DNA of 64,000 bases from Nitrospinota bacterium. Its GTDB lineage: Bacteria; UBA8248. Position 1 is the stretch's first letter. Each line of letters begins with the position of its first letter. The translations under genes were made by a program, and so were the position numbers. This document shows positions 3,149 through 14,983 of this stretch, in pieces. A model generated the notes under the pieces. It had not been told where the DNA came from, did not search any database, and saw only the letters and a list, made by a program, of their open reading frames with translations. The DNA lies in the NCBI GenBank assembly GCA_036231405.1, contig JAZAHK010000006.1, positions 126,812 through 190,811 on the forward strand, written 5' to 3'.

Positions 3149-4297
3149 TTAATTATTCGATGAAATACTTCCAAAATCAAGATTAGAGTCAAAATCTGAA
3201 GGGTTCCCGTTTTTAAAGTCTTCCTGAAGACGATTCCATGAATGAATATGTTGCGATGTATGGTTTCTAAAATACGGCATTACATATCGTGCAAACAAAT
3301 CAATGGAATGTCTTATGTTCTCTTCTGAAGTCCATTCATGAGTTGTCATCATAAAACCACCAAATCCTCCTGTTTCTTTTATAAATTGTTCAATAGCACC
3401 AATTGCATCATCTGGAGTACCAATGATCCATCTTCTGTTCTTAGCCCCGATTCTAGGAGATATCTCATCAAAAGGTTGTCCGGAATAATCTTCATAAGCA
3501 GACTGAAATCCTATCGTTTTGAAATAATTCATTTCACGTGCAATCCCTTCTTCCACTTCATCCCATGCTTTTTGTCGGTTTTCCGAGAGATAAACGGAAG
3601 TTACTATTCGCCAATTTTCTCGGGAAATAGAAGTGTCATGCTGCAATGCAGATTTTTCTACTTTTGACCACTGTTCAGAAAAACTAAGCTTCCCTTCTCT
3701 TGGCTTTCCTGCCATTGAAAAAAGAATACATCCATGTTTCCCAGCTAAACTCAGAGTTTGCTCACCTCCTGCAGTGGCAATACAAATAGGGATTCTAGGT
3801 TTCTGAAAAGAATGTAATTGCAAAACAATGTCTTTTAGCTTCCAGTATTTTCCATCAAAATCAAAGGGAGTTCTACTATCAAACAAATTTACTATTATAT
3901 CTAAGGATTCCTCCATCATATCCCACATTTCTTCGGGGTTTATTCGAAAAAGTCTCTTGTCAGAAATAAGACTACTCGGACCCACTCCTAACATTGCTCT
4001 TCCCATTGTAAGGTGATCAAGAAAAACAATTCTTTCGGCAACATGATACGGATGATGATATGGGAGATTTATAACCGATGTTCCCAATCTAATTCTTTTT
4101 GCAGTAGCTGACGCTTTCGCTAAAGCCATCTCTGGACAAGGCATATTCTCCCAACCACCTGAGTGATGTTCCCCTATAAAAAACTCATCGAATCCAAGCA
4201 TGTCAGCGAAATTAACCAGCCTGATATCTCGATCAAAAGCTAAAGAAGGATTCTCTTTCGGTTGATGAATTGGCATCATAAAGAAAGAAAATTTCAA
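3149..4297 (-). CDS. LLM class (luciferase-like) flavin-dependent oxidoreductase
   Basis: 382-aa ORF with the motif FDEFFIGEHHSG and a TIM-barrel LLM-like N-terminus. Confidence 0.7.
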   Translation of the reverse strand: MKFSFFMMPIHQPKENPSLAFDRDIRLVNFADMLGFDEFFIGEHHSGGWENMPCPEMALAKASATAKRIRLGTSVINLPYHHPYHVAERIVFLDHLTMGRAMLGVGPSSLISDKRLFRINPEEMWDMMEESLDIIVNLFDSRTPFDFDGKYWKLKDIVLQLHSFQKPRIPICIATAGGEQTLSLAGKHGCILFSMAGKPREGKLSFSEQWSKVEKSALQHDTSISRENWRIVTSVYLSENRQKAWDEVEEGIAREMNYFKTIGFQSAYEDYSGQPFDEISPRIGAKNRRWIIGTPDDAIGAIEQFIKETGGFGGFMMTTHEWTSEENIRHSIDLFARYVMPYFRNHTSQHIHSWNRLQEDFKNGNPSDFDSNLDFGSISSNN

Positions 4298-4347
4298 AAT
4301 ATTCTCCTAGAATCAAAAAAAAATTCTCTCTAAAAAATTTAAAAAAA

Positions 4348-5367
4348 TCAAACAATTTGCTTCTTTTTAAGTTCAAAAACTTTTGACAAAAGTTCATATG
4401 TCTTTAAACGTGCTTCAAAAGAGTGCAGTGTATTAACAATAACAAATTCATCTACCTCACATTTCCTAGATAAGTCTAATAACTTATCTTTAACTTGCTC
4501 TGGGTTCCCGATAATAGTCCTCCTTCTTATACTATCAGCAAAATTACGTTCTAACTCGCTCCAGTCATAAGAAAGAGACTCTTCAGGAGTTGGGACACCC
4601 CCACCTTCACCTCGTCTACTCTTAAGCATCATCAATGGCCTACTTTCAGCTAAATACTTAGCTTCCTCCTCGCTCTCAGCACAGACCACAAAAACGGCTA
4701 CACTCCCCAAAGGTTCTTTTTTATCTGTAGAGGGTTTAAAGTTCTTTTTATAATAACCTATTACCTCTGATACTCCGTTACCACTTATAAAATGCGCAAA
4801 ACAAAAAGGAATACCAAAATGGGAAGCAATAATTGCACCCTGATCTGATGAACCTAAAAGCCATATTTGAGGAACGCTTTCTCCTGATGGCATAGCGACA
4901 ACTTTTCTAAACGGATGTTCCTCATGATGTACTCCAGATAACCAGCATCTTAGATCTCTTACTTTCTGAGGAAATCTATCTACGTTAAAATCTTCAGAGC
5001 TCAGAGATAATGCGGAAGAAGTTATGCGATCTGCGCCTGGAGCACGCCCTAATCCTAGATCTATCCTTCCTGGATAGATGGATTCAAGAACTCTAAAATT
5101 CTCTGCAACTTTCAATGGGCTATGATGACTCAGCATAACTCCTCCAGAACCAACACGAATTGTAGATGTTATAGAAGCCAACTGCCCAACAAGGATTTCG
5201 GGAGAGGTTCCTGCAAACATTGGATGGCTATGATGTTCTGCTACCCAGAAACGATAATAACCCAATTTTTCAGTTTTCTTAGCAAGAATCAATGTCTCAT
5301 TAATGGCGTCAGAAGGCGAACACCCCTTACGAATTGGAGATTGATCTAAAACACTTAAACGTATCAT
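4348..5367 (-). CDS. LLM class flavin-dependent oxidoreductase (YhbW/MsnO8-like)
   Basis: 339-aa ORF with FWVAEHHSHP and IDLGLGRAPGAD motifs characteristic of luciferase-like monooxygenase family proteins. Confidence 0.7.
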   Translation of the reverse strand: MIRLSVLDQSPIRKGCSPSDAINETLILAKKTEKLGYYRFWVAEHHSHPMFAGTSPEILVGQLASITSTIRVGSGGVMLSHHSPLKVAENFRVLESIYPGRIDLGLGRAPGADRITSSALSLSSEDFNVDRFPQKVRDLRCWLSGVHHEEHPFRKVVAMPSGESVPQIWLLGSSDQGAIIASHFGIPFCFAHFISGNGVSEVIGYYKKNFKPSTDKKEPLGSVAVFVVCAESEEEAKYLAESRPLMMLKSRRGEGGGVPTPEESLSYDWSELERNFADSIRRRTIIGNPEQVKDKLLDLSRKCEVDEFVIVNTLHSFEARLKTYELLSKVFELKKKQIV

Positions 5368-6030: not shown

Positions 6031-6344
6031 TTTCGTAAGATAAGAATAATTACATTTAGCTTGACCCTTAAGTTAAAACCTGTTGCATATCAAAATCAAA
6101 AGCGTCAATATACATGAAATTATTTTATTCATAAAATGGATACAATGCATGACTTTAGGAAAAGATGGATTCCAAAAAGTTTGGAAAAACCTTTTTAATC
6201 AATCTCTTGATGAAAAGTCACTTTCCGGCATCGAAAAGATATTAAGTGACTCAGTCGAATCTGAGAAAAAAATATCAGATATAATTTCTTCTGATATCGA
6301 ACCAATGCACAAAATTTCATTTCAACATTCTCATGGACGAGAGA

Positions 6345-7760
6345 ATGCAAAAGATAACTAATTTTTCTGCTTTTCATATTGTTTCCTCGATTAAAAAAAA
6401 GGAAATTTCTGCAATAGAGGTATCTGAAGCTTTTCTCGAAAGATGTAAATCTATAGGGGAAAAGCTCAACACTTGGATAGCTTTAGATGAAGAAACAATT
6501 CTAAATCGCGCTAATGAAATTGATAAACTTTTAAAAGATGGAAAGGATCCTGGCCCCTTATGTGGAGTTCCTATAGGGATTAAAGATCTCATTGATATGG
6601 AGAATTTTCCAACTACTTCGGGGAGCTTAATTGAAAAAGACAGTTTCGCAAATTCTGATTCTACAATTGTTTCAAAATTAAAAAATGCAGGTGCAAATAT
6701 ATTTGGAAAACTAAATCTTCATGAATTTGCTTTTGGACCAACCGGACTAAATCCGCACTATGGGGACCAGAAAAATCCATGGGACCCTAAACATATGACC
6801 GGGGGATCAAGTGGAGGTTCAGGAAACAGTGTTGTTACTTCGCAAGTCCCTATTTCCATCGGTTCTGATACGGGCGGTTCGATTCGTATCCCATCATCAC
6901 TCTGTGGTTCTTTCGGTCTCAAACCAACTTTAGGATTAGTGAGCAAATTTCGCTGCATGCCTTTGTCATGGTCGCTTGACACCTTAGGTCCACTTTCAAT
7001 GTCAATCGAAGATTGTTCTCTCTTTATGTCAGTTGTTTCTGGATTCGATCCTCAGGATCCATATTCTATTCATTCTGATCATATTGATTTTAATGGAAAG
7101 TTAAAAAAGAATGATTTACAAAAAACAAGAGTAGGCCACGCAAGAAGTTTTTATGAGAAAAACACAGATAAAGTGATTTCATCCAGAATAAACGAAATTG
7201 CCCAACAAATATCAAAACTAGGAGTTGAAGTTATAGAAATCGATATTCCTGAACTTGACATTGCATACGATGCATGCACCTCTATTATGGTGTCAGAGGC
7301 GGCTGCAGTGCACGAAAAGAGGATTCGTCATTTTGCATCAAAATATGACCCGCAGGTTATAGAAAGGATTAAACCAGGGTTTTTCGTACCCGCAACCTCT
7401 TACATTCAATCGCAAAGATTTAGGGGAGAATGGTCTCAAAAAATAACAAATGAAATTTTTGCAAAAGTAGATGCAATTTTAGCTCCTACAACACCAATCG
7501 CAGCTCCTTTAAGAAGTGAACATAGTGTTTTCTTAAATGGGGAAAAAAAAGAGACAAGAGGATTACTCATCTCTTTAACAAGAATTTGGAATTTCTATGG
7601 CGGACCTTCCGTTTCTATGCCAATTGGAAAAACAGAGCAAGGCCTTCCATTTGGCGCTCAACTGATGGGGCGAATCCTCGAAGATGACAAACTACTAGGG
7701 TTAGCATATAATTTAGAAAAAGAAAAAATTTGTGAGGCAGAAAGAATTTCCGAACTGTAG
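6345..7760 (+). CDS. Amidase (amidase-signature family)
   Basis: Carries the GGSSGGS amidase signature and a GVPIGIKDLI segment. The ATG at 6345 is preceded by GAGAG; the ORF track uses an ATG 12 nt upstream. The gene ends in TAG at 7758-7760. Confidence 0.75.
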   Translation: MQKITNFSAFHIVSSIKKKEISAIEVSEAFLERCKSIGEKLNTWIALDEETILNRANEIDKLLKDGKDPGPLCGVPIGIKDLIDMENFPTTSGSLIEKDSFANSDSTIVSKLKNAGANIFGKLNLHEFAFGPTGLNPHYGDQKNPWDPKHMTGGSSGGSGNSVVTSQVPISIGSDTGGSIRIPSSLCGSFGLKPTLGLVSKFRCMPLSWSLDTLGPLSMSIEDCSLFMSVVSGFDPQDPYSIHSDHIDFNGKLKKNDLQKTRVGHARSFYEKNTDKVISSRINEIAQQISKLGVEVIEIDIPELDIAYDACTSIMVSEAAAVHEKRIRHFASKYDPQVIERIKPGFFVPATSYIQSQRFRGEWSQKITNEIFAKVDAILAPTTPIAAPLRSEHSVFLNGEKKETRGLLISLTRIWNFYGGPSVSMPIGKTEQGLPFGAQLMGRILEDDKLLGLAYNLEKEKICEAERISEL

Positions 7761-7785: not shown

Positions 7786-9042
7786 TCATTCTGGCCTTGA
7801 CCCCAATGGACCCATTGGAAACCTATCGCAAAGCTGCCGCACATCATCACGAATAGAAGATAATTTTACGTCATCTTCTATATCTTCTAAAACATCAGAG
7901 ATCCAATTTCCAATAAGTTCTAACTCATTCTCTTTCATTTTTCTAGAAGTAATAGCGGCAGTTCCGATACGAACACCACTTGTAAAAGCTGGTTTCCTAG
8001 TATCATATGGGATAGAATTTTTATTTACTGTTATACCCGCTTTCCCTAAGGCAATTTCAGCTTTTTTACCACTAAACCCAATTTCTCTTAAATCCAATAA
8101 AATTAGATGATTATCCGTACCATCAGAAACTAGATTTAAACCTTTTTCGGATAAAACTAATGCAAGTTTTTTAGAATTTTTTACTATTTGCGAAGCATAG
8201 TCTTTAAATTCATCAGTAGAAGCCTCTTTAAAGGAAACTGCTTTCCCCGCTATAACGTGCATCAATGGACCACCTTGCATTCCTGGAAAAATTGCCTTGT
8301 CAATTTTCGATGCATATTCTTCATCACACAAAACCATCCCACCCCTAGGTCCCCTTAGTGTTTTATGAGTTGTAGTGGTTATTATTTGAGCATGCCCAAC
8401 GGGAGAGGGATGATCTCCACTTACTATCAACCCTGCAATATGTGCAATATCCGCCATCAAAATCGCCCCAACTTTATCTGCAATTGCACGAAATCGGGCA
8501 TAATCTATCTCTCTAGGGAACGCACTCGCACCAGCAACTATAATCTTCGGAGAAGACTTTTTAGCCTGCTCTTCAACATCGTCAAAATCTATTAAATGAT
8601 TTTCTGGATCAACACCATAACTAGCAACCTCAAACCATCTTCCAGAAAAAGTAACTGGATGCCCATGCGTCAGGTGACCTCCATGGGATAAGTTCATTCC
8701 CAGAATCGTATCTCCAGGTTCTAACAAACCAAAATAGACAGCCGCATTCGCTTGTGCGCCACTATGAGGCTGAACACAAGCATGATCTACACGAAAAATT
8801 TCCTTTGCTCTTTCGATAGCGAGTGTTTCGGCAACATCAACGAATTCGCAACCCCCATAATACCGTTTCCCAGGCAAACCTTCGGCATATTTGTTAGTCA
8901 TAACACCACCAACCGCCTCCATTACGGATAGACTGACGTAGTTTTCAGAAGCAATTAGTTCGAGTTCATCTGCCTGTCTATTTCTTTCTTCCTCTAGAGA
9001 CTTATATAAATCTGGGTCTGTCTGAGATAGTACTGAAGTCAT
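7786..9042 (-). CDS. glyA: Serine hydroxymethyltransferase
   Basis: 418-aa ORF with the N-terminus [29 protein letters not shown] and full-length SHMT-like sequence. Confidence 0.95.
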
Positions 9043-9061
9043 TCAAAAACCTCCAATAAAA

Positions 9062-9388
9062 TTATCCGCCTAAATATTGTCCCATTAACATAATCAAATC
9101 ACCATTTTTAACTTTACTGTTTAAATTGTGTTCTATTCCAAGCAAAGCATCGTTAACTACAATTTCTATGTGTTCAGCAAGTTCGGAAGACCCTCTATCC
9201 CACAATGCATCATCAAGTGCCTTATAACGAGTACTTAGGCCCTTTAGAACAGAAAAAACAGTAGCACCTTCTACGATAGGTTCTTCAAAAACCTTGCGGC
9301 TACTTCCATCTCCACCAACGAAAGTGTTAGCCCAAGCCACTAGTTCAACTTTCACACTAGCGTCTGTTACTGAAGAATTAGACATCAT
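9062..9388 (-). CDS. MoaD/ThiS-family sulfur-carrier-like protein (AorD-like)
   Basis: 108-aa ORF with a C-terminal GG. It sits 16 nt downstream of the AOR gene on the same strand. Confidence 0.55.
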   Translation of the reverse strand: MMSNSSVTDASVKVELVAWANTFVGGDGSSRKVFEEPIVEGATVFSVLKGLSTRYKALDDALWDRGSSELAEHIEIVVNDALLGIEHNLNSKVKNGDLIMLMGQYLGG

Positions 9389-9404
9389 CGGGAAAATCTC
9401 AAAA

Positions 9405-11291
9405 TTAGACTTTATCTTTATCAGGGTTCCACACAGCTTCGACTATTTCCTCTAGTTCTAGAGACCTTAAAGTATCTGGAGTCGGACGACCCGTTTTCCT
9501 ATCATACCCTACAGTTTCATACCAAAGATCTAACATTTCATCCCAATTATCCATTATGGAAACACCAGCAATCGGACCGTCAATTGGAGTGGATCCATAA
9601 CGCTTTGAGGGTTTCTCCAATTCTGGTCCAATTCCACAACGAAGATTAAACGCTCTCATTAGCGTGGCTATTCTTCTTCCTGCAAGCATTGCCTCGTCAA
9701 TACGAATATCCCAACCGGTAGCAGATTCAAGTGAACGACATAGCATTTCCAAAGGAACACGAGTAGTAAATACACAGGCACCAAGTGAATCCTCAAAATG
9801 GCGCCTTCCACGTAGCGCTCCTACCTGCTTTGAAACAGCTTTTGGATCCTGAGGACGTATACTTGCAGGCAGACCATGCTCAGTTGGAAAAACGGGAGGC
9901 GCTGTATCCATAGTTCCTCCACTTCCTGTACAAGTATCAAGGAGTTCTTCCCATCTAGAGCGATGATCATGACCTCTTGGAGAATTTCCAGCCATTGTAT
10001 AAATGGCACAATCTGCAGCTTCACCTCCAACTTTTTCAGATGCTCTTTTAACTCCTTCGGCTAAAAGTTCTCCATAACCCTCTTTATTAGAAATCATTTT
10101 CAGCAAACGATCCGCTCCAGAAACATCACCCCACTCCAAACGGAATCCTAAATCTTCTTCAGTTATAAATCCCTTTTCCTGGCATTCCATTACCCATCCA
10201 CAAAGCCAGCCAAATTCATTGACGTCAACACACGCACGATCCAGTTGGGTGTTCAACCAAGTTACTTCTTGAGGATCCGTCGCCCCAATGGCCCAACCCG
10301 CTCCAGACCAACCTTCGTACTCTGGTTCATCGACAACTTGTCCCTTATAACGCCCAGACGAAATTACTTGCATATGACAGTGTTTCATTCCACACGAATT
10401 ACATTGATGGCCACGATGGTCAAATCCTTCTCTTAATCCTTTCGCTTCCCATATATCCGTATCTACTGCATCTGGCCAGACATTTGTTGTGTAATTTTTT
10501 ATGGGCAGTGCACCCATACCAACCATATTACGCACACCACCTAAAGTCCCATACTCATACAAAGATTTAGTAGAAGGATCATTTTGCAAACTATGAGCCA
10601 TTTCATCAGAACAAGAAAAAAGTGCCTGTGGAAAAGCCACTTTAATCCCTTTTTTTCCTCTTTCTATTGCTACCGCTTTTATTTTTTTCTTTCCCATCAC
10701 CGCGCCACATCCATTCTTACTAGCTACATGTCCATAATCACCTTGAATTGCAGCGAAACGAACTAAGTTCTCCCCGGCAGGACCTATGCTGTAAACACTT
10801 AAATTGTGTCCATTGAGATTCAATTCTTTTTCAAGTGATTCTTGTGTCTCCCAAGTGTCCTTCCCAAGGAGATCTTGTGCACTCTTAATTTCAACACCAT
10901 CTTCGTGTATATGTAAATAAACCCAGTCTTTTGATTGCCCTTGGAAAATTATTGCATCGAAACCACAATATTTTAGATTTGCCCCAAAGAAACCATTTGC
11001 CTGTGTGTTTGTAGCTCCATTTGTCAATGCTCCTCGCGTAACAACAGTTAAACCACCAGTCCCCCATACGGGCAAACCTGCCAGAGGTCCTGTCGCAAAC
11101 ACAAGTCGATTATCCGGATGATCCCAGTTAACATCACTTGAAACTTCTTCCCATAAAATTTTTGCCCCAAGGCCTGCGCCTCCTATCCACTTACGACGTT
11201 CAACTTCACTAAACTCCTCTTTAGAAATTAAATGGGATGAAAGATCGACTCTTAAAATATTTCCAGCATAAGAAAAAGGTGAATTCGACAA
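9405..11291 (-). CDS. aor: Tungsten-containing aldehyde:ferredoxin oxidoreductase family protein (AorB-like large subunit)
   Basis: 628-aa ORF whose N-terminal AOR_N-like region begins GNILRVDLSSHLISKEEF. Its length and sequence match the AOR/FOR family. Confidence 0.9.
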   Translation of the reverse strand: MSNSPFSYAGNILRVDLSSHLISKEEFSEVERRKWIGGAGLGAKILWEEVSSDVNWDHPDNRLVFATGPLAGLPVWGTGGLTVVTRGALTNGATNTQANGFFGANLKYCGFDAIIFQGQSKDWVYLHIHEDGVEIKSAQDLLGKDTWETQESLEKELNLNGHNLSVYSIGPAGENLVRFAAIQGDYGHVASKNGCGAVMGKKKIKAVAIERGKKGIKVAFPQALFSCSDEMAHSLQNDPSTKSLYEYGTLGGVRNMVGMGALPIKNYTTNVWPDAVDTDIWEAKGLREGFDHRGHQCNSCGMKHCHMQVISSGRYKGQVVDEPEYEGWSGAGWAIGATDPQEVTWLNTQLDRACVDVNEFGWLCGWVMECQEKGFITEEDLGFRLEWGDVSGADRLLKMISNKEGYGELLAEGVKRASEKVGGEAADCAIYTMAGNSPRGHDHRSRWEELLDTCTGSGGTMDTAPPVFPTEHGLPASIRPQDPKAVSKQVGALRGRRHFEDSLGACVFTTRVPLEMLCRSLESATGWDIRIDEAMLAGRRIATLMRAFNLRCGIGPELEKPSKRYGSTPIDGPIAGVSIMDNWDEMLDLWYETVGYDRKTGRPTPDTLRSLELEEIVEAVWNPDKDKV

Positions 11292-11305
11292 AACTAATTC
11301 CTCAT

Positions 11306-12628
11306 TTATGATGAAATTGTAATACTTTCTTCAGGAACCGATGGAATTCCGACAAGTGTCTCTGAAAGAAGTTTCCCCACAGAACCAGATGCGAGAAAAG
11401 CGCGTTTAATATCGAAAGGATTTCTCTTGATATGATCTTTCCAATCAGTGAGATCACTTTGTGTATAAATCAACCCTCTTAGCATTCCTATATCGTTCGT
11501 GTGCCATACATCATCGCCCAATCCAATAGCAATAGAACCAACCATACGCCCATGATCAAAAATCATTTTTCTATAAGAAGGGCGGCTTAAGTTTGCCTTT
11601 AGTATTGTGTCTGAACCCTCTTCATCCCAGGCCCCGAAACTAGCGATCTCTAAACCAAAAACATCTAAGATGTTCATCAACAAACTTCCTTTATAACTCA
11701 CTTCCTTTCCAGACATGTTTGATGCAGCAATCCTTCCGTGCTGAACTGCTGTAGGTTCAATCGCATGAACTGCACTTTTCCCCGTCACAATATCTATCCC
11801 CTTTGCGACGTCACCAGCAGCATAAATATTACTAATATTTGTACGGCAATACTTGTCTACAAGAATCCCTTCATCTAAATTCAAATCAGAATCTGTCAGC
11901 CAATCGATGTTAGGCTTTATTCCCGTAGCCATGATAACTAAATCTGTTTTTTGTTCTGTTCCATCATTAAATTTTATCAATTTCTCATTTTCGTAGTCAT
12001 CGATTGAAAGAACCTTACAATCTACTCTTACATCTACACCTTTTGAAACAAGCCATTGACTTACAATCTTTGCCCCTTGCTCATCCAACATTCTCGGCAG
12101 TATGTGCTTCTCCACCTCGACAACGGTTAAATCCACACCCCTGCTAATCAAAGCGTTAAGAATAGTAAATGAAATAAAACCTGCGCCAATCATGGTTACA
12201 CGGGTGTTTTTTTTGATCTTACTGGTTACCTCCCGTGCTTGGGGCAATGTCCAAAAACTAGATACGTTTTTTCCCTCGGATCCGGGGATAGGCGGTCTAA
12301 CAGGAGAGGAACCAGTCGCTATCAAAAGGTTATCATAGTCAACTTCTTCTCCATCCTCTAATACGATCTTGCTATTTTTAGAATCTAATTCTTTCACATC
12401 CTTTCCAAGTTTTAACTCAATATTTAGATTTTCTAATCTTGTCTTTGAAGCTGTAAAAACTTGGGATTCACCTATTTCCTTAGAAAGATAGTATGGCAAA
12501 ACCATTCTTGAATAAGGAGATTCATTAGAGATAAGTACTATATTAGAATCACCGCGATCGATTTCTCTCAAAGTTGTAATCGCATTCCAACCCGCTGTGC
12601 CCCCACCAACTATGACTTGTCGAACCAA
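11306..12628 (-). CDS. FAD-dependent pyridine nucleotide-disulfide oxidoreductase (AorC-like)
   Basis: N-terminus VIVGGGTAGWNA gives a GxGxxG FAD fold; the 440-aa ORF is NADH-oxidase/CoA-disulfide-reductase-like. Confidence 0.75.
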   Translation of the reverse strand: MVRQVIVGGGTAGWNAITTLREIDRGDSNIVLISNESPYSRMVLPYYLSKEIGESQVFTASKTRLENLNIELKLGKDVKELDSKNSKIVLEDGEEVDYDNLLIATGSSPVRPPIPGSEGKNVSSFWTLPQAREVTSKIKKNTRVTMIGAGFISFTILNALISRGVDLTVVEVEKHILPRMLDEQGAKIVSQWLVSKGVDVRVDCKVLSIDDYENEKLIKFNDGTEQKTDLVIMATGIKPNIDWLTDSDLNLDEGILVDKYCRTNISNIYAAGDVAKGIDIVTGKSAVHAIEPTAVQHGRIAASNMSGKEVSYKGSLLMNILDVFGLEIASFGAWDEEGSDTILKANLSRPSYRKMIFDHGRMVGSIAIGLGDDVWHTNDIGMLRGLIYTQSDLTDWKDHIKRNPFDIKRAFLASGSVGKLLSETLVGIPSVPEESITISS

Positions 12629-12630
12629 AA

Positions 12631-13116
12631 CTAGCTCACCTCCAAAACAAGAGGACCACTTGGGCCTTTTGAACGATCATTAGCAAAACTTCCAATCCAA
12701 TCGGAATTCGCGTCAACCTCTACATACTCAATAGCTCCAGTAGGGCAAACCTTTTGACAAGCAGGATTTCCACCACATAAATCACATTTAAATGCCTTAT
12801 GAGTTTCTGGATCAAAGAAAATCGTGCCATAAGGGCAGGCAATGGTACAGAGCTTACAGCCTACACAAAGATCATCTTTGATTTCTTTTGCCTCGGATGA
12901 AGATATAGAAATTGCTTCTATTGGACAAGCAGTCATACACCATGCTTCATCACACTGAGGACAAGTATAAGGAGCGTAACTTGTATGATTCTCGAACGCA
13001 GAAACTCTAATAACTGATTTAGAAGGTCTAAATGTTCCTGTTTGCTCATAAGAACACGCTAATTCACATCGCATACAACCAGTACATTTTTGGGGAATTA
13101 TTTTTAAGACCTTCAT
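12631..13116 (-). CDS. 4Fe-4S ferredoxin-type electron-transfer subunit with four cluster motifs (AorA-like)
   Basis: Four Cx2Cx2-3Cx3CP motifs are present. The ATG at 13116 (MKVLKII) is preceded by GGAGA; the ORF track start at 13149 adds 11 residues. Confidence 0.75.
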   Translation of the reverse strand: MKVLKIIPQKCTGCMRCELACSYEQTGTFRPSKSVIRVSAFENHTSYAPYTCPQCDEAWCMTACPIEAISISSSEAKEIKDDLCVGCKLCTIACPYGTIFFDPETHKAFKCDLCGGNPACQKVCPTGAIEYVEVDANSDWIGSFANDRSKGPSGPLVLEVS

Positions 13117-13237
13117 AGAATCTCCGGATTGGAATGAAACAAAAAACACAAACGATTATAGGAAATAGACAAAAATATTTCAAACAATTCACCTTAAAAG
13201 ATGGTGTTTAAGGTTTTTTTCTACATGAAAAAAAATT

Positions 13238-14128
13238 TTAGCTCCCTGAACTGACCATGAGGGCTCCTGCAATTGCAATTACAGCACCTAGAATTACTTG
13301 AAAAGATAGGCGTTCAATTTTTTTAAAGAACAACCAAGAAACAAAAATCACAAAAACCAAAGAAAGTCTTCTTATGGGAAATACTTCAACAATATTTCCA
13401 TTCTTAATACTTGTCCAAAATGTTAACCCTGTCATTATATTAAATAAACCCGCTAGAGACATAGTGATTACGGCTTTTTTGTGCCAAGAAAAACTTATGA
13501 AATTTTCTTCCTTTTTCCCTAAGAATATTGAAACAAAACATTGACAAATGATCGCAGCACATGATGCGATTGCAATTCCCAAAGATGCACAAGGAATATA
13601 TGAAAAAGCTAGTTTTCTAAAGGTTGGAGAAAAAGAGAAAAACATCGCACTTATAACCGGCAGGAAATAATAAAATGATTTTGCAATTTTATTTTTCCCT
13701 CTAGCTTCATGGACCAAAATCATCCCGCCGAAAACAACTAGTATTGTCCCTATGGCAATCGAAGTATTAAGTTTTTCTCCAATGAATAAAATTGCAACTA
13801 TAGAAGACCAAATAGGAGCTGTTTGATAAAGAGTCTGGGTCCTTGCAAGACCAATTTTTGAATACGAAATATTATTAAAATGCCGCGCTATAAACTGTGC
13901 AAAAAGACCAGATAACGAAAAGAAAAGTACTCCTTTAAAAGACAGTTCATAATATCTCCCTTCTAAAAGGTAAACGGCGAATGCAAGACAACCGACAACA
14001 AAATTGGCCGCAACAGTTACCTCTTCTGGCCTTAAAAAACGAACCGCCTGTCTGTAGAAACTCTGTGCTATAGACAACAACATCGCAGAAATGAGAGCCA
14101 ATAGATTTGGATGGATCAAATCTAACAA
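13238..14128 (-). CDS. DMT/EamA family transporter
   Basis: 296-aa polytopic membrane protein with duplicated five-TM halves typical of EamA. Confidence 0.55.
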   Translation of the reverse strand: MLDLIHPNLLALISAMLLSIAQSFYRQAVRFLRPEEVTVAANFVVGCLAFAVYLLEGRYYELSFKGVLFFSLSGLFAQFIARHFNNISYSKIGLARTQTLYQTAPIWSSIVAILFIGEKLNTSIAIGTILVVFGGMILVHEARGKNKIAKSFYYFLPVISAMFFSFSPTFRKLAFSYIPCASLGIAIASCAAIICQCFVSIFLGKKEENFISFSWHKKAVITMSLAGLFNIMTGLTFWTSIKNGNIVEVFPIRRLSLVFVIFVSWLFFKKIERLSFQVILGAVIAIAGALMVSSGS

Positions 14129-14143
14129 AGGAAACCTTTCTAA

Positions 14144-14983
14144 TCAAAAAGAAAGAATTAAAACCGCGAGAATTGCAGATAAAATTCCTAAACCCTTTTT
14201 CAAAGATAAGTGCTCTTTAAAAAAAAGAATGGATAAAAAACCGGTAAACACAAAGCTTAGTTGGGCTATTGGTGTCACTACGATGGCTTCACCATACACC
14301 AACGCAACTGAAAGTGAAAGATAACTAGCATAAGTCAAAATTCCACATAGAAATGGGAGGGTAAGCGATAACTTTTTTTTAGGAAATTTTTCACGGCACA
14401 TAAAAACATATGGAATAGTTAGTGAAAAAACTCCAAAAGTTTGTGCAGCTATCATTCCAGAAGGAAGTGCTCCAAAGCGTAAACTTAATTTAATAAAGAA
14501 TCCTATTAGACCAAACAGACACATCGATAAAAAGGCATAATAAAAAGAAGTCTTTTCGCTAGACAGAAAAGACTTATCGATTCCAACACTCAAAATTGAA
14601 ATAACACACAAAAAAATTGCAAGAGTCTTGTAAAGACTTAAACTTTCACCTAAAAAAACTATTGCTAAGAGAGAGGTGACAATAAAATTCAGCCTTATAA
14701 TCGTAACTATTGAAATTGCTCCGCTGTTTTTTAGAGCAAATAGGACAAACAAAAATGCGGTAAAGGCCAAAAATCCATTTAAAAAACCTAAAAGTAAAAA
14801 ATTATTCCAAATCAATTCTTCTCTAAAGTAAGCCACTCCAAACGCTGCAGGTAAAAAGGAAAAGTTTTGAAATAACATAAAAGTGGACGGCTTTACCTCC
14901 CACTTGTTTGATAGTTTGTATAAAAAATCGCTACATCCAAGAGAAAACAATGAAAAAAGGGCAAAAAAGATCTCTGGGTTCAA
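14144..14983 (-). CDS. DMT/EamA-like membrane protein
   Basis: 279-aa polytopic membrane protein, 15 nt upstream of the other EamA gene on the same strand. Confidence 0.45.
   Translation of the reverse strand: MNPEIFFALFSLFSLGCSDFLYKLSNKWEVKPSTFMLFQNFSFLPAAFGVAYFREELIWNNFLLLGFLNGFLAFTAFLFVLFALKNSGAISIVTIIRLNFIVTSLLAIVFLGESLSLYKTLAIFLCVISILSVGIDKSFLSSEKTSFYYAFLSMCLFGLIGFFIKLSLRFGALPSGMIAAQTFGVFSLTIPYVFMCREKFPKKKLSLTLPFLCGILTYASYLSLSVALVYGEAIVVTPIAQLSFVFTGFLSILFFKEHLSLKKGLGILSAILAVLILSF

Follow-up and report, generated by a model that had tools for sequence, protein, structure and literature searches.

Does the tight row of redox genes preceding glyA in a Nitrospinota bacterium encode a nicotinamide adenine dinucleotide (NAD)-linked tungsten aldehyde oxidoreductase (AOR) of the kind described in Aromatoleum, or an enzyme of another lineage that employs the same electron-transfer parts? 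We addressed this question in a 64,000-nt stretch of contig JAZAHK010000006.1 (assembly GCA_036231405.1), hereafter the window, where five tightly packed minus-strand open reading frames (ORFs) span positions 7786-13149. These specify, in this order, a polyferredoxin, a subunit binding flavin adenine dinucleotide (FAD), an AOR-family catalytic subunit, a small protein ending in Gly-Gly (GG protein) and serine hydroxymethyltransferase (SHMT, glyA). All five ORFs lie where the original prediction had placed them, in the same order and separated by exactly the same gaps of 2, 14, 16, and 19 nt. We assign a probability of about 0.8 to the reading that the first four, hereafter the aor genes, specify a cytoplasmic three-subunit pterin (tungsten-type) oxidoreductase with Class III composition, i.e., WorL-WorS-WorN (equivalent to AorB-AorA-AorC), plus a dedicated MoaD/ThiS-like maturation factor.

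Electron-transfer subunits and Class III architecture

Searches with hidden Markov models from Pfam and NCBIfam recovered every family that had been called from the letters alone, namely AFOR_N/AFOR_C, Fer4, and Pyr_redox_2. The ferredoxin protein matched multiple Fer4 models in Pfam, and its 16 Cys residues are all conserved in an alignment of 67 distinct family sequences. Its best solved relative is AorA of Aromatoleum (8c0z_C; E = 2.3e-51, 55% identity), the match to WorS of A. mobile being weaker (5e-33). The FAD subunit combines Pyr_redox_2 (2e-55) with Rubredoxin_C in Pfam and aligns end to end with Aromatoleum AorC (8c0z_E; 3e-74, ~39% identity), with which it shares a GGGTAG motif and the GAGFI...LTVVE dinucleotide motif; its GxGxxG and LTVVE motifs correspond to those of the NAD-using Aromatoleum enzyme. 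Grouping of the two flanking subunits with unrelated families, which had been named in advance as damaging to the cluster assignment, was not observed. In NCBIfam, the best matches were PadH for the FAD subunit (NF045765; 2.2e-81, score 274 against an equivalog cut-off of 475) and the N-terminal part of PadI for the ferredoxin (NF045766; 1.5e-27, score 96 against an equivalog cut-off of 700), both from phenylglyoxylate:NAD+ oxidoreductase. The window locus lacks 2-oxoacid oxidoreductase subunits. The PadH/PadI matches thus point to the AorC/AorA pair as a reusable NAD-linked electron-transfer module.

The published WOR tree comprises 92 clades, and a 2026 classification of the WOR family lists Class III, composed of WorL, WorS, and WorN, for clades 13, 67, and 87, the Aromatoleum enzyme (AaAOR, clade 87) being the only one of this class that has been characterised. 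The window locus has both genes by which the class is recognised, i.e., an adjoining small subunit with four [4Fe-4S] motifs and an FAD pyridine-nucleotide oxidoreductase, and since these subunits are closest to AorA and AorC, its architecture is that of a Class III WOR. The joint presence of ferredoxin, FAD, AOR-family, and MoaD-like genes also bore out the proposal of a complete multi-subunit cluster of the NAD type, distinct from the archaeal single-subunit AOR. The Pyrococcus enzyme (Pf AOR, 1AOR) is a single-subunit, ferredoxin-linked protein, unlike the window system, whereas that of A. mobile (WorL/WorS, 9MQX) is a bifurcating complex of five subunits, among them BfuABC-type proteins that have no counterpart at the window locus. 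Aromatoleum AorABC (8C0Z) consists of the same three subunit types as the window system, and both operons contain MoaD-like genes. However, the gene order is A-C-B-D with a single MoaD-like gene in the window but A-B-C-D-E with two of them in Aromatoleum, and the hosts of the window family are mostly aerobic or microaerobic lineages, in contrast to the Aromatoleum system.

The close spacing of the three subunit genes (2 and 14 nt), the Shine-Dalgarno sequence preceding each of them, a gene order shared by 64 of 80 related loci, and a conserved DWxGxFAxER tail of the ferredoxin are all consistent with subunits that would assemble into one complex. The Aromatoleum complex is filamentous, with an (LS)nN composition, delivers electrons to NAD+ and polymerises through a helix at the AorA C-terminus. 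In the ferredoxin family of the window, the conserved DW[LVI]GxFAxER stretch lies at the position where this filament-mediating helix begins, and the AorA tail starts its helix with the same DW motif; any filament formed by the window system would be a matter of analogy. By the same analogy, a carbonyl substrate, most likely an aldehyde, would be oxidised to the acid at a bis-pterin metal centre of the 628-aa subunit. The electrons would then pass to the [4Fe-4S] cluster of this subunit, to the four clusters of the 161-aa polyferredoxin (five [4Fe-4S] in total) and to the FAD of the 440-aa subunit, where NAD+ would be reduced. Such a chain could also run in reverse.

The ferredoxin gene had been placed at 12631-13149, of which the gene itself stood (16 Cys, Fer4 matches) and the start did not. 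The longest ORF begins at GTG 13149 (172 aa), and a promoter-like TTGAAA-17-TATAAT element (13183..13155), identical to the consensus at 11 of 12 positions, ends just upstream of this codon. Among 22 sampled homologues, 17 start with MKV/MRV/MKI-L (MKVLKI-like), as does the window protein when read from ATG 13116, which is preceded by GGAG. Because of the position of the promoter-like element, the N-termini of the homologues and the GGAG, the true start is placed at ATG 13116, yielding a 161-aa protein, instead of GTG 13149. The N-terminus of this product, MKVLKIIPQKCTGC, leads straight into the first cluster motif, with neither a Tat signal nor a membrane anchor as judged by eye. Both hexamers (-35/-10) and the GGAG are invariant in the window and the three closest marine Nitrospinaceae genomes, among which the upstream portion of the 88-nt spacer ahead of the gene has diverged; the element probably acts as a promoter. 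Shine-Dalgarno sequences also stand before each of the other three aor genes and before glyA. The FAD gene starts with TTG 2 nt past the aorA stop, its Shine-Dalgarno sequence (GGAGGTGA) lying within the aorA 3' end, and the TTG start of the catalytic gene is preceded by GAGGA; both TTG codons directly follow the stop of the preceding gene.

The catalytic subunit and its active site

The catalytic subunit matched AFOR_N (PF02730, 3.8e-64) and AFOR_C (PF01314, 2.3e-78), each over the full length of the model, and its best structural matches were 9mqx_D (5e-79), 1aor (4e-77), and 8c0z_A (4e-66). The pterin-binding motifs, chosen beforehand as the test of the AOR assignment, are present on alignment: Pf AOR binds its pterins through Asp motifs at D338..D343 and D489-x-x-G-x-C494, and the corresponding D351-RACV-D356 and D501-SLGA-C506 of the window protein are invariant among 19 aligned family sequences. 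Residues C297, C300, and C506 align with canonical ligands of the [4Fe-4S] cluster (CxxCxxxC...C). The third ligand position is occupied by His304, and Cys305, one residue later (CxxCxxxHC), would be available as the fourth ligand at a non-canonical spacing; H304-C305-H306 does not vary within the family, and the arrangement is also typical of the superclade to which the family belongs. Thr243 and Glu313 (PfAOR numbering, as in what follows; T249 and E326 in the window protein) are kept. The AFOR fold, the pterin Asp motifs, these two residues and three cluster Cys therefore align between the window protein and the Pf and A. mobile enzymes, which belong to clade 87.

Several observations weigh against a Class III enzyme that oxidises aldehydes at a tungsten centre. 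The catalytic subunit is 31-33% identical to its solved relatives (31% to Aromatoleum AorB, 32-33% to Pf AOR and A. mobile WorL). Thr243, Glu313, Tyr427, and His448 are nearly invariant in aldehyde-oxidising WORs, and two of these four signature residues of clade 87 are replaced: Tyr427 by His441, inside a PRGHDHR motif whose H441-D-H443 is invariant in the family, and His448 by Asp462, which is either Asp or Glu across the family. Arg76 and Arg182 have likewise given way to Gly80 and His188, both invariant in the family. The loss of these four residues renders aldehyde as the substrate uncertain; for Tyr443 and His464 of the Aromatoleum enzyme, equivalent to Tyr427 and His448, a role in binding the hydrated aldehyde and in its deprotonation has been proposed. 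In addition, the segment T455-P466 contains no His, and position 463, where clade-87 enzymes have Lys450, holds Thr or Ser. An AlphaFold2 model built on the 19-sequence family alignment reached a mean predicted local distance difference test score of 62.7, with values below 50 at residues 243-362 and 411-466; because confidence is low in the cofactor core, the residue assignments rest on sequence alignment. Two loci, L059 and L087 (8001-10260; the latter from outside the genome scan described below), hold the catalytic and a MoaD-like gene only. As for tungsten, neither a tungstate or molybdate transporter, including tupABC and wtp, nor moeB, moaE, or another cofactor gene was found in the 64-kb window (Pfam searches of the remaining ORFs of at least 110 aa), and open-ocean tungstate is far scarcer than molybdate. 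The metal may be either W or Mo, family membership being what points to tungsten, and a role as a broad-spectrum aldehyde oxidoreductase is less secure than the architecture.

Among 1.84 billion cluster representatives searched exhaustively, no full-length match to the catalytic subunit exceeded 44% identity, and the matches formed a continuum from there down to ~30%; a look-up of the exact window sequence returned no record. A neighbour-joining tree built from 136 sequences gathered every one of the 42 proteins with the H188 + H304 signature in one 49-member clade that includes the window protein and excludes the three solved clade-87 enzymes. E. coli YdhV, the top NCBIfam match of the catalytic subunit (1.4e-58, through its N-terminal domain), also lies outside this clade. 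YdhV was discarded as a close relative at 24% identity and with a canonical set of motifs, i.e., the canonical Cys spacing and His; the Class V system to which it belongs is membrane-associated and involves other partners. YdhV binds Mo rather than W, a reminder that membership of the AOR family does not fix the metal.

The nearest sister clades derive from Bathyarchaeia, Deltaproteobacteria, Chloroflexota, and Clostridia, and are ~50% identical to P0122, one of their own proteins, and ~38-44% to that of the window. They share H188, CxxCxxxHC, H441(-D-H443), and a residue other than His at 462, often with a ThiS/MoaD gene directly downstream. In the three genomic contexts examined, WorL stands by itself or has ThiS as a companion, in catabolic clusters of various kinds, with no adjoining polyferredoxin or AorC-type subunit. 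The Class III architecture appears to have arisen in, or moved into, a lineage other than clade 87.

These results bear on the proposed match to Aromatoleum AorABC(D), which stood for the electron-transfer subunits (55% and 39% identity) and fell for the orthology of the catalytic subunit (31-33%, separate clade), the gene order and the number of MoaD-like genes. A straight AorABC orthologue, i.e., a broad-spectrum W-dependent aldehyde:NAD+ oxidoreductase serving aldehyde detoxification, is unlikely. Its catalytic subunit should resemble AorB more closely than the observed 31%, given that clade-87 enzymes (Pf AOR, AorB, and A. mobile WorL) are mutually 50-56% identical, and it should neither fall into a clade that excludes them nor differ from AorB at Tyr443 (His), His464 (Asp/Glu), and Arg75 (Gly), besides the lost Arg182 and a third cluster Cys shifted by one residue; the rearranged operon with one MoaD-like gene instead of two argues in the same direction. 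What such an orthologue does explain is the identical set of subunits, the AorA and AorC relationships, the presence of a MoaD-like gene in the operon as with aorD/E, and the retention of Glu313, Thr243, and the pterin motifs. We rather interpret the catalytic subunit as a member of a separate, uncharacterised WOR clade with a predicted remodelled second coordination sphere and not as an AorB orthologue; the family is set apart from clade 87 and may match clade 13 or 67. In substrate range or chemistry, the subunit is probably unlike the Aromatoleum and Pyrococcus AORs.

How far this difference might go is less clear-cut. It is possible, if only tentatively so, that the Class III electron chain serves a substrate other than an aldehyde, or operates mainly in the reductive direction at the expense of NADH. 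The two residues assigned to gem-diol binding, Tyr443 and His464, are replaced by the invariant PRGHDHR motif and by Asp/Glu, and the WOR family does include published non-aldehyde chemistry (benzoyl-CoA reductase BamB and the sulfonate-oxidising WOR5/ASOR) as well as a member inactive on aldehydes. Clusters of the sister clades also hold genes for an amidohydrolase, an enoyl-CoA hydratase, MttB, an aminotransferase, and a short-chain dehydrogenase. Conversely, Glu313 and Thr243 are conserved, the fold family is mostly aldehyde-oxidising and no neighbour gene conserved across phyla indicates a particular substrate. A bolder version, which we regard as doubtful, would have the family as a widespread Class III pterin oxidoreductase to which the name aldehyde oxidoreductase, as used for AOR, does not apply. 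In it, His441-Asp-His443, Asp/Glu462, His188, and His304-Cys305 would form a site remodelled for a different reaction or metal regime, e.g., Mo in tungsten-poor seawater, and would provide marine nitrite oxidisers with a new source or sink of low-potential electrons.

Conservation of the four-gene module

Conservation of the Class III gene set was scored by tblastn searches with the window proteins against the 80 loci of a genome scan (L005-L084). The order ferredoxin-FAD-catalytic-GG on one strand recurred in 64 of these loci; ten others end at contig edges, and the remaining six are without one component at the thresholds used. The ferredoxin goes together with the FAD subunit more consistently than with the catalytic subunit. 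In one Rokubacteria metagenome-assembled genome (MAG), the ferredoxin apparently runs into the FAD subunit (L075, 6001-7900), as a result of either a fusion or an assembly frameshift. The module occurs in Nitrospinota, Tectomicrobia/Entotheonella, Rokubacteria, NC10/Methylomirabilota, and a few others, and the genes flanking it differ completely between phyla, which identifies the four genes as a self-contained module.

The ratio of nonsynonymous to synonymous substitution rates (dN/dS), calculated against the three closest genomes, was 0.04 for the catalytic gene; the ferredoxin gene gave 0.05, that of the FAD subunit 0.08-0.10, and that of the GG protein 0.08-0.19, compared with ~0.05 for glyA. 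Such low values indicate that the aor genes are functional and under strong purifying selection. A decaying remnant was ruled out on account of these ratios (0.04-0.19) and of ORFs that are intact and of family-typical length.

On its own, the 108-aa GG protein had no significant Pfam match (ThiS, E = 0.1) and matched NCBIfam models weakly (SAMP1, 2e-5; moaD_arch, 9e-5). At the family level, ThiS (PF02597) was matched by 20 of 21 members, with a best E-value of 8.7e-7, and the family profile matched the CysO-like ThiS/MoaD structures 4n6e_B (1e-3) and 3dwg_C with their GG ends aligned; the match to SAMP1 was weaker (E 0.04-0.9, above the usual significance threshold). In the window protein, GQYLGG stands right before the stop codon, leaving a C-terminal Gly-Gly that would be available for adenylation and thiocarboxylation. 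Nearly all related loci likewise have GQ[YF]xGG at the C-terminus, and a GG-type gene stands behind the catalytic gene in nearly every one of them. The purified Aromatoleum enzyme lacks the MoaD-like products of aorD and aorE, and ThiS genes beside WorL are common in other WOR clades. By analogy, the GG protein would serve pterin dithiolene or cofactor maturation rather than being a subunit of the enzyme.

The locus joins an Aromatoleum-type ferredoxin/FAD electron-transfer module to the catalytic subunit of a different, unstudied clade, and this combination is conserved and strongly selected in the main nitrite oxidisers of the ocean and in several other, mostly aerobic phyla. Tungsten or aldehyde oxidoreductases are not mentioned for Nitrospina/Nitrospinota in one comparative-genomics paper, nor did full-text literature searches return any mention. 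If expressed, the system bears on the use of trace organic aldehydes and acids by marine nitrite oxidisers and on their demand for W versus Mo, offers a naturally altered active site on which the proposed Glu/Tyr/His mechanism could be tested, and may be a catalyst for converting acids or aldehydes that tolerates oxygen.

A further conceivable role is in autotrophy. There, the Nitrospinota complex would pass low-potential electrons from aldehydes or H2 to NADH and/or reduced ferredoxin for the reverse tricarboxylic acid cycle, bypassing reverse electron flow from nitrite. The aldehyde/acid couple does have a very low potential, the Aromatoleum AOR also oxidises H2 with NAD+, according to the comparative-genomics paper no ferredoxin-reducing complex is known for many Nitrospinota, and the operon is not only conserved but under constraint as strong as that on glyA. 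We nonetheless hold this role to be very unlikely, for it is purely inferential, the same module exists in non-autotrophic Entotheonella and Rokubacteria, and neither a ferredoxin partner nor a hydrogenase-like feature was identified.

glyA, neighbouring genes and the wider window

The original prediction had speculated that tight packing with glyA could reflect a functional link through aldehydes released by SHMT. The glyA protein is a clear SHMT (Pfam, 1e-165), and its gene has a strong GGAGG Shine-Dalgarno sequence of its own. A 19-20 nt juxtaposition with the GG gene was found in the window and its closest relatives (L005-L007) only. In 24 Nitrospinota loci, an opposite-strand DUF3151 gene stands between the two, and in others they are 0.4-3 kb apart. 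Together with a convergent AtzE-type amidase gene, glyA lies near the module exclusively in Nitrospinota-type loci (28 of 80), and it was not found within up to 8 kb downstream in any module locus of another type (Tectomicrobia, Rokubacteria, NC10). An operon coupled to glyA, e.g., for clearing aldehydes from SHMT side reactions, is extremely unlikely in light of this distribution and of the housekeeping nature of a gene with its own ribosome-binding site, even if the short gap, the common strand, the lack of a terminator-like site between the genes and the occurrence of glyA within a few kb in all Nitrospinota loci reaching far enough could be taken as signs of a shared pathway. The proposed link is largely refuted by synteny: glyA is a lineage-specific neighbour and not a component of the module, and its tight packing is best explained by the loss of an intervening gene in a low-G+C marine lineage rather than by a shared pathway. 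This is a caution for annotation, where adjacency to glyA should not be over-read.

In the window lineage, glyA is probably co-transcribed with the aor genes. No terminator-like site was detected in the 19-nt gap, so read-through from the aor promoter may occur as a secondary consequence of the packing. Among four marine Nitrospinaceae genomes, the stretch 9037-9143, which comprises the MoaD-like gene's 3' end plus the gap before glyA, showed a third-codon-position invariance of 0.77, the highest of the aor-glyA region (mean 0.47, standard deviation 0.11), and the synonymous rate of the MoaD-like gene (dS 0.39-0.66) was below that of its neighbours (0.7-1.4). This stretch may mark an embedded glyA promoter or leader that arose after loss of the intervening gene. 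The amidase gene, convergent with glyA, is AtzE-like (NCBIfam, 1.8e-110, below the cut-off), and the glyA-amidase pair is kept in nearly all Nitrospinota loci reaching far enough.

Table 1. Coordinates of the aor genes, glyA, and neighbouring features in the window
Feature	Position	Strand	Remarks
Promoter-like site TTGAAA-17 nt-TATAAT	13155..13183	minus	within the 88-nt spacer that precedes the ferredoxin gene
AorA/WorS-type polyferredoxin, 161 aa, four predicted [4Fe-4S]	12631..13116	minus	start corrected
AorC/WorN-type FAD subunit, 440 aa, predicted NAD(H) site	11306..12628	minus	Pyr_redox_2 + Rubredoxin_C
WorL/AorB-type catalytic subunit, 628 aa, predicted pterin cofactor and one [4Fe-4S]	9405..11291	minus	AFOR_N + AFOR_C
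ThiS/MoaD-like beta-grasp protein, 108 aa, ending in GQYLGG; putative maturation/sulfur-carrier factor, AorD-like	9062..9388	minus	
glyA, serine hydroxymethyltransferase	7786..9042	minus	SHMT 1e-165
EamA-family (drug/metabolite transporter) genes, two	13238-14983	minus	
AtzE-family amidase gene	6333-7760	plus	
Luciferase-like monooxygenase genes, two adjoining, and BON-domain gene	3149-5367	minus	
Mo-hydroxylase large subunit	1-2106	minus	runs off the window edge

The nearest genomic relatives of the window are MAGs of uncultured marine Nitrospinaceae, some of them from Tara Oceans runs; L005-L007 are collinear with the window locus and their AOR proteins are 93-94% identical to that of the window. 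The window itself is assigned to an uncultured member of these marine, nitrite-oxidising Nitrospinaceae. G+C content of the window is ~34%. The aor-glyA segment (8001-12000) reaches 41%, against 31-39% elsewhere and 32-36% for most of the window, the likelier cause being strong amino-acid constraint. Recent transfer of this segment is disfavoured because of synteny across Nitrospinota. The rest of the window is mostly devoted to housekeeping functions, such as Tol-Pal, ligA, mreB, fba, fbp, and others; neither tRNA genes nor, in Rfam searches, a molybdenum/tungsten cofactor (Moco/Tuco) riboswitch or another RNA family was found in it.

The Mo-hydroxylase large subunit noted earlier at the start of the window proved real (Ald_Xan_dh_C, 9.6e-20; MoCoBD_1, 2e-74; MoCoBD_2, 7.7e-77). 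This second pterin enzyme near the module implies that the organism makes molybdopterin. Directly upstream of the putative aor promoter and on the same strand, the EamA gene pair is kept in most Nitrospinota-type loci reaching far enough and was not detected at the module in its other phyla; a link of these genes to transport of the substrate or product is possible but unsupported. In Nitrospinota relatives at 78% identity, a BON-domain gene with just one luciferase-like gene after it also lies beyond the amidase gene, which extends the synteny to the luciferase-like and BON-domain genes of the window.

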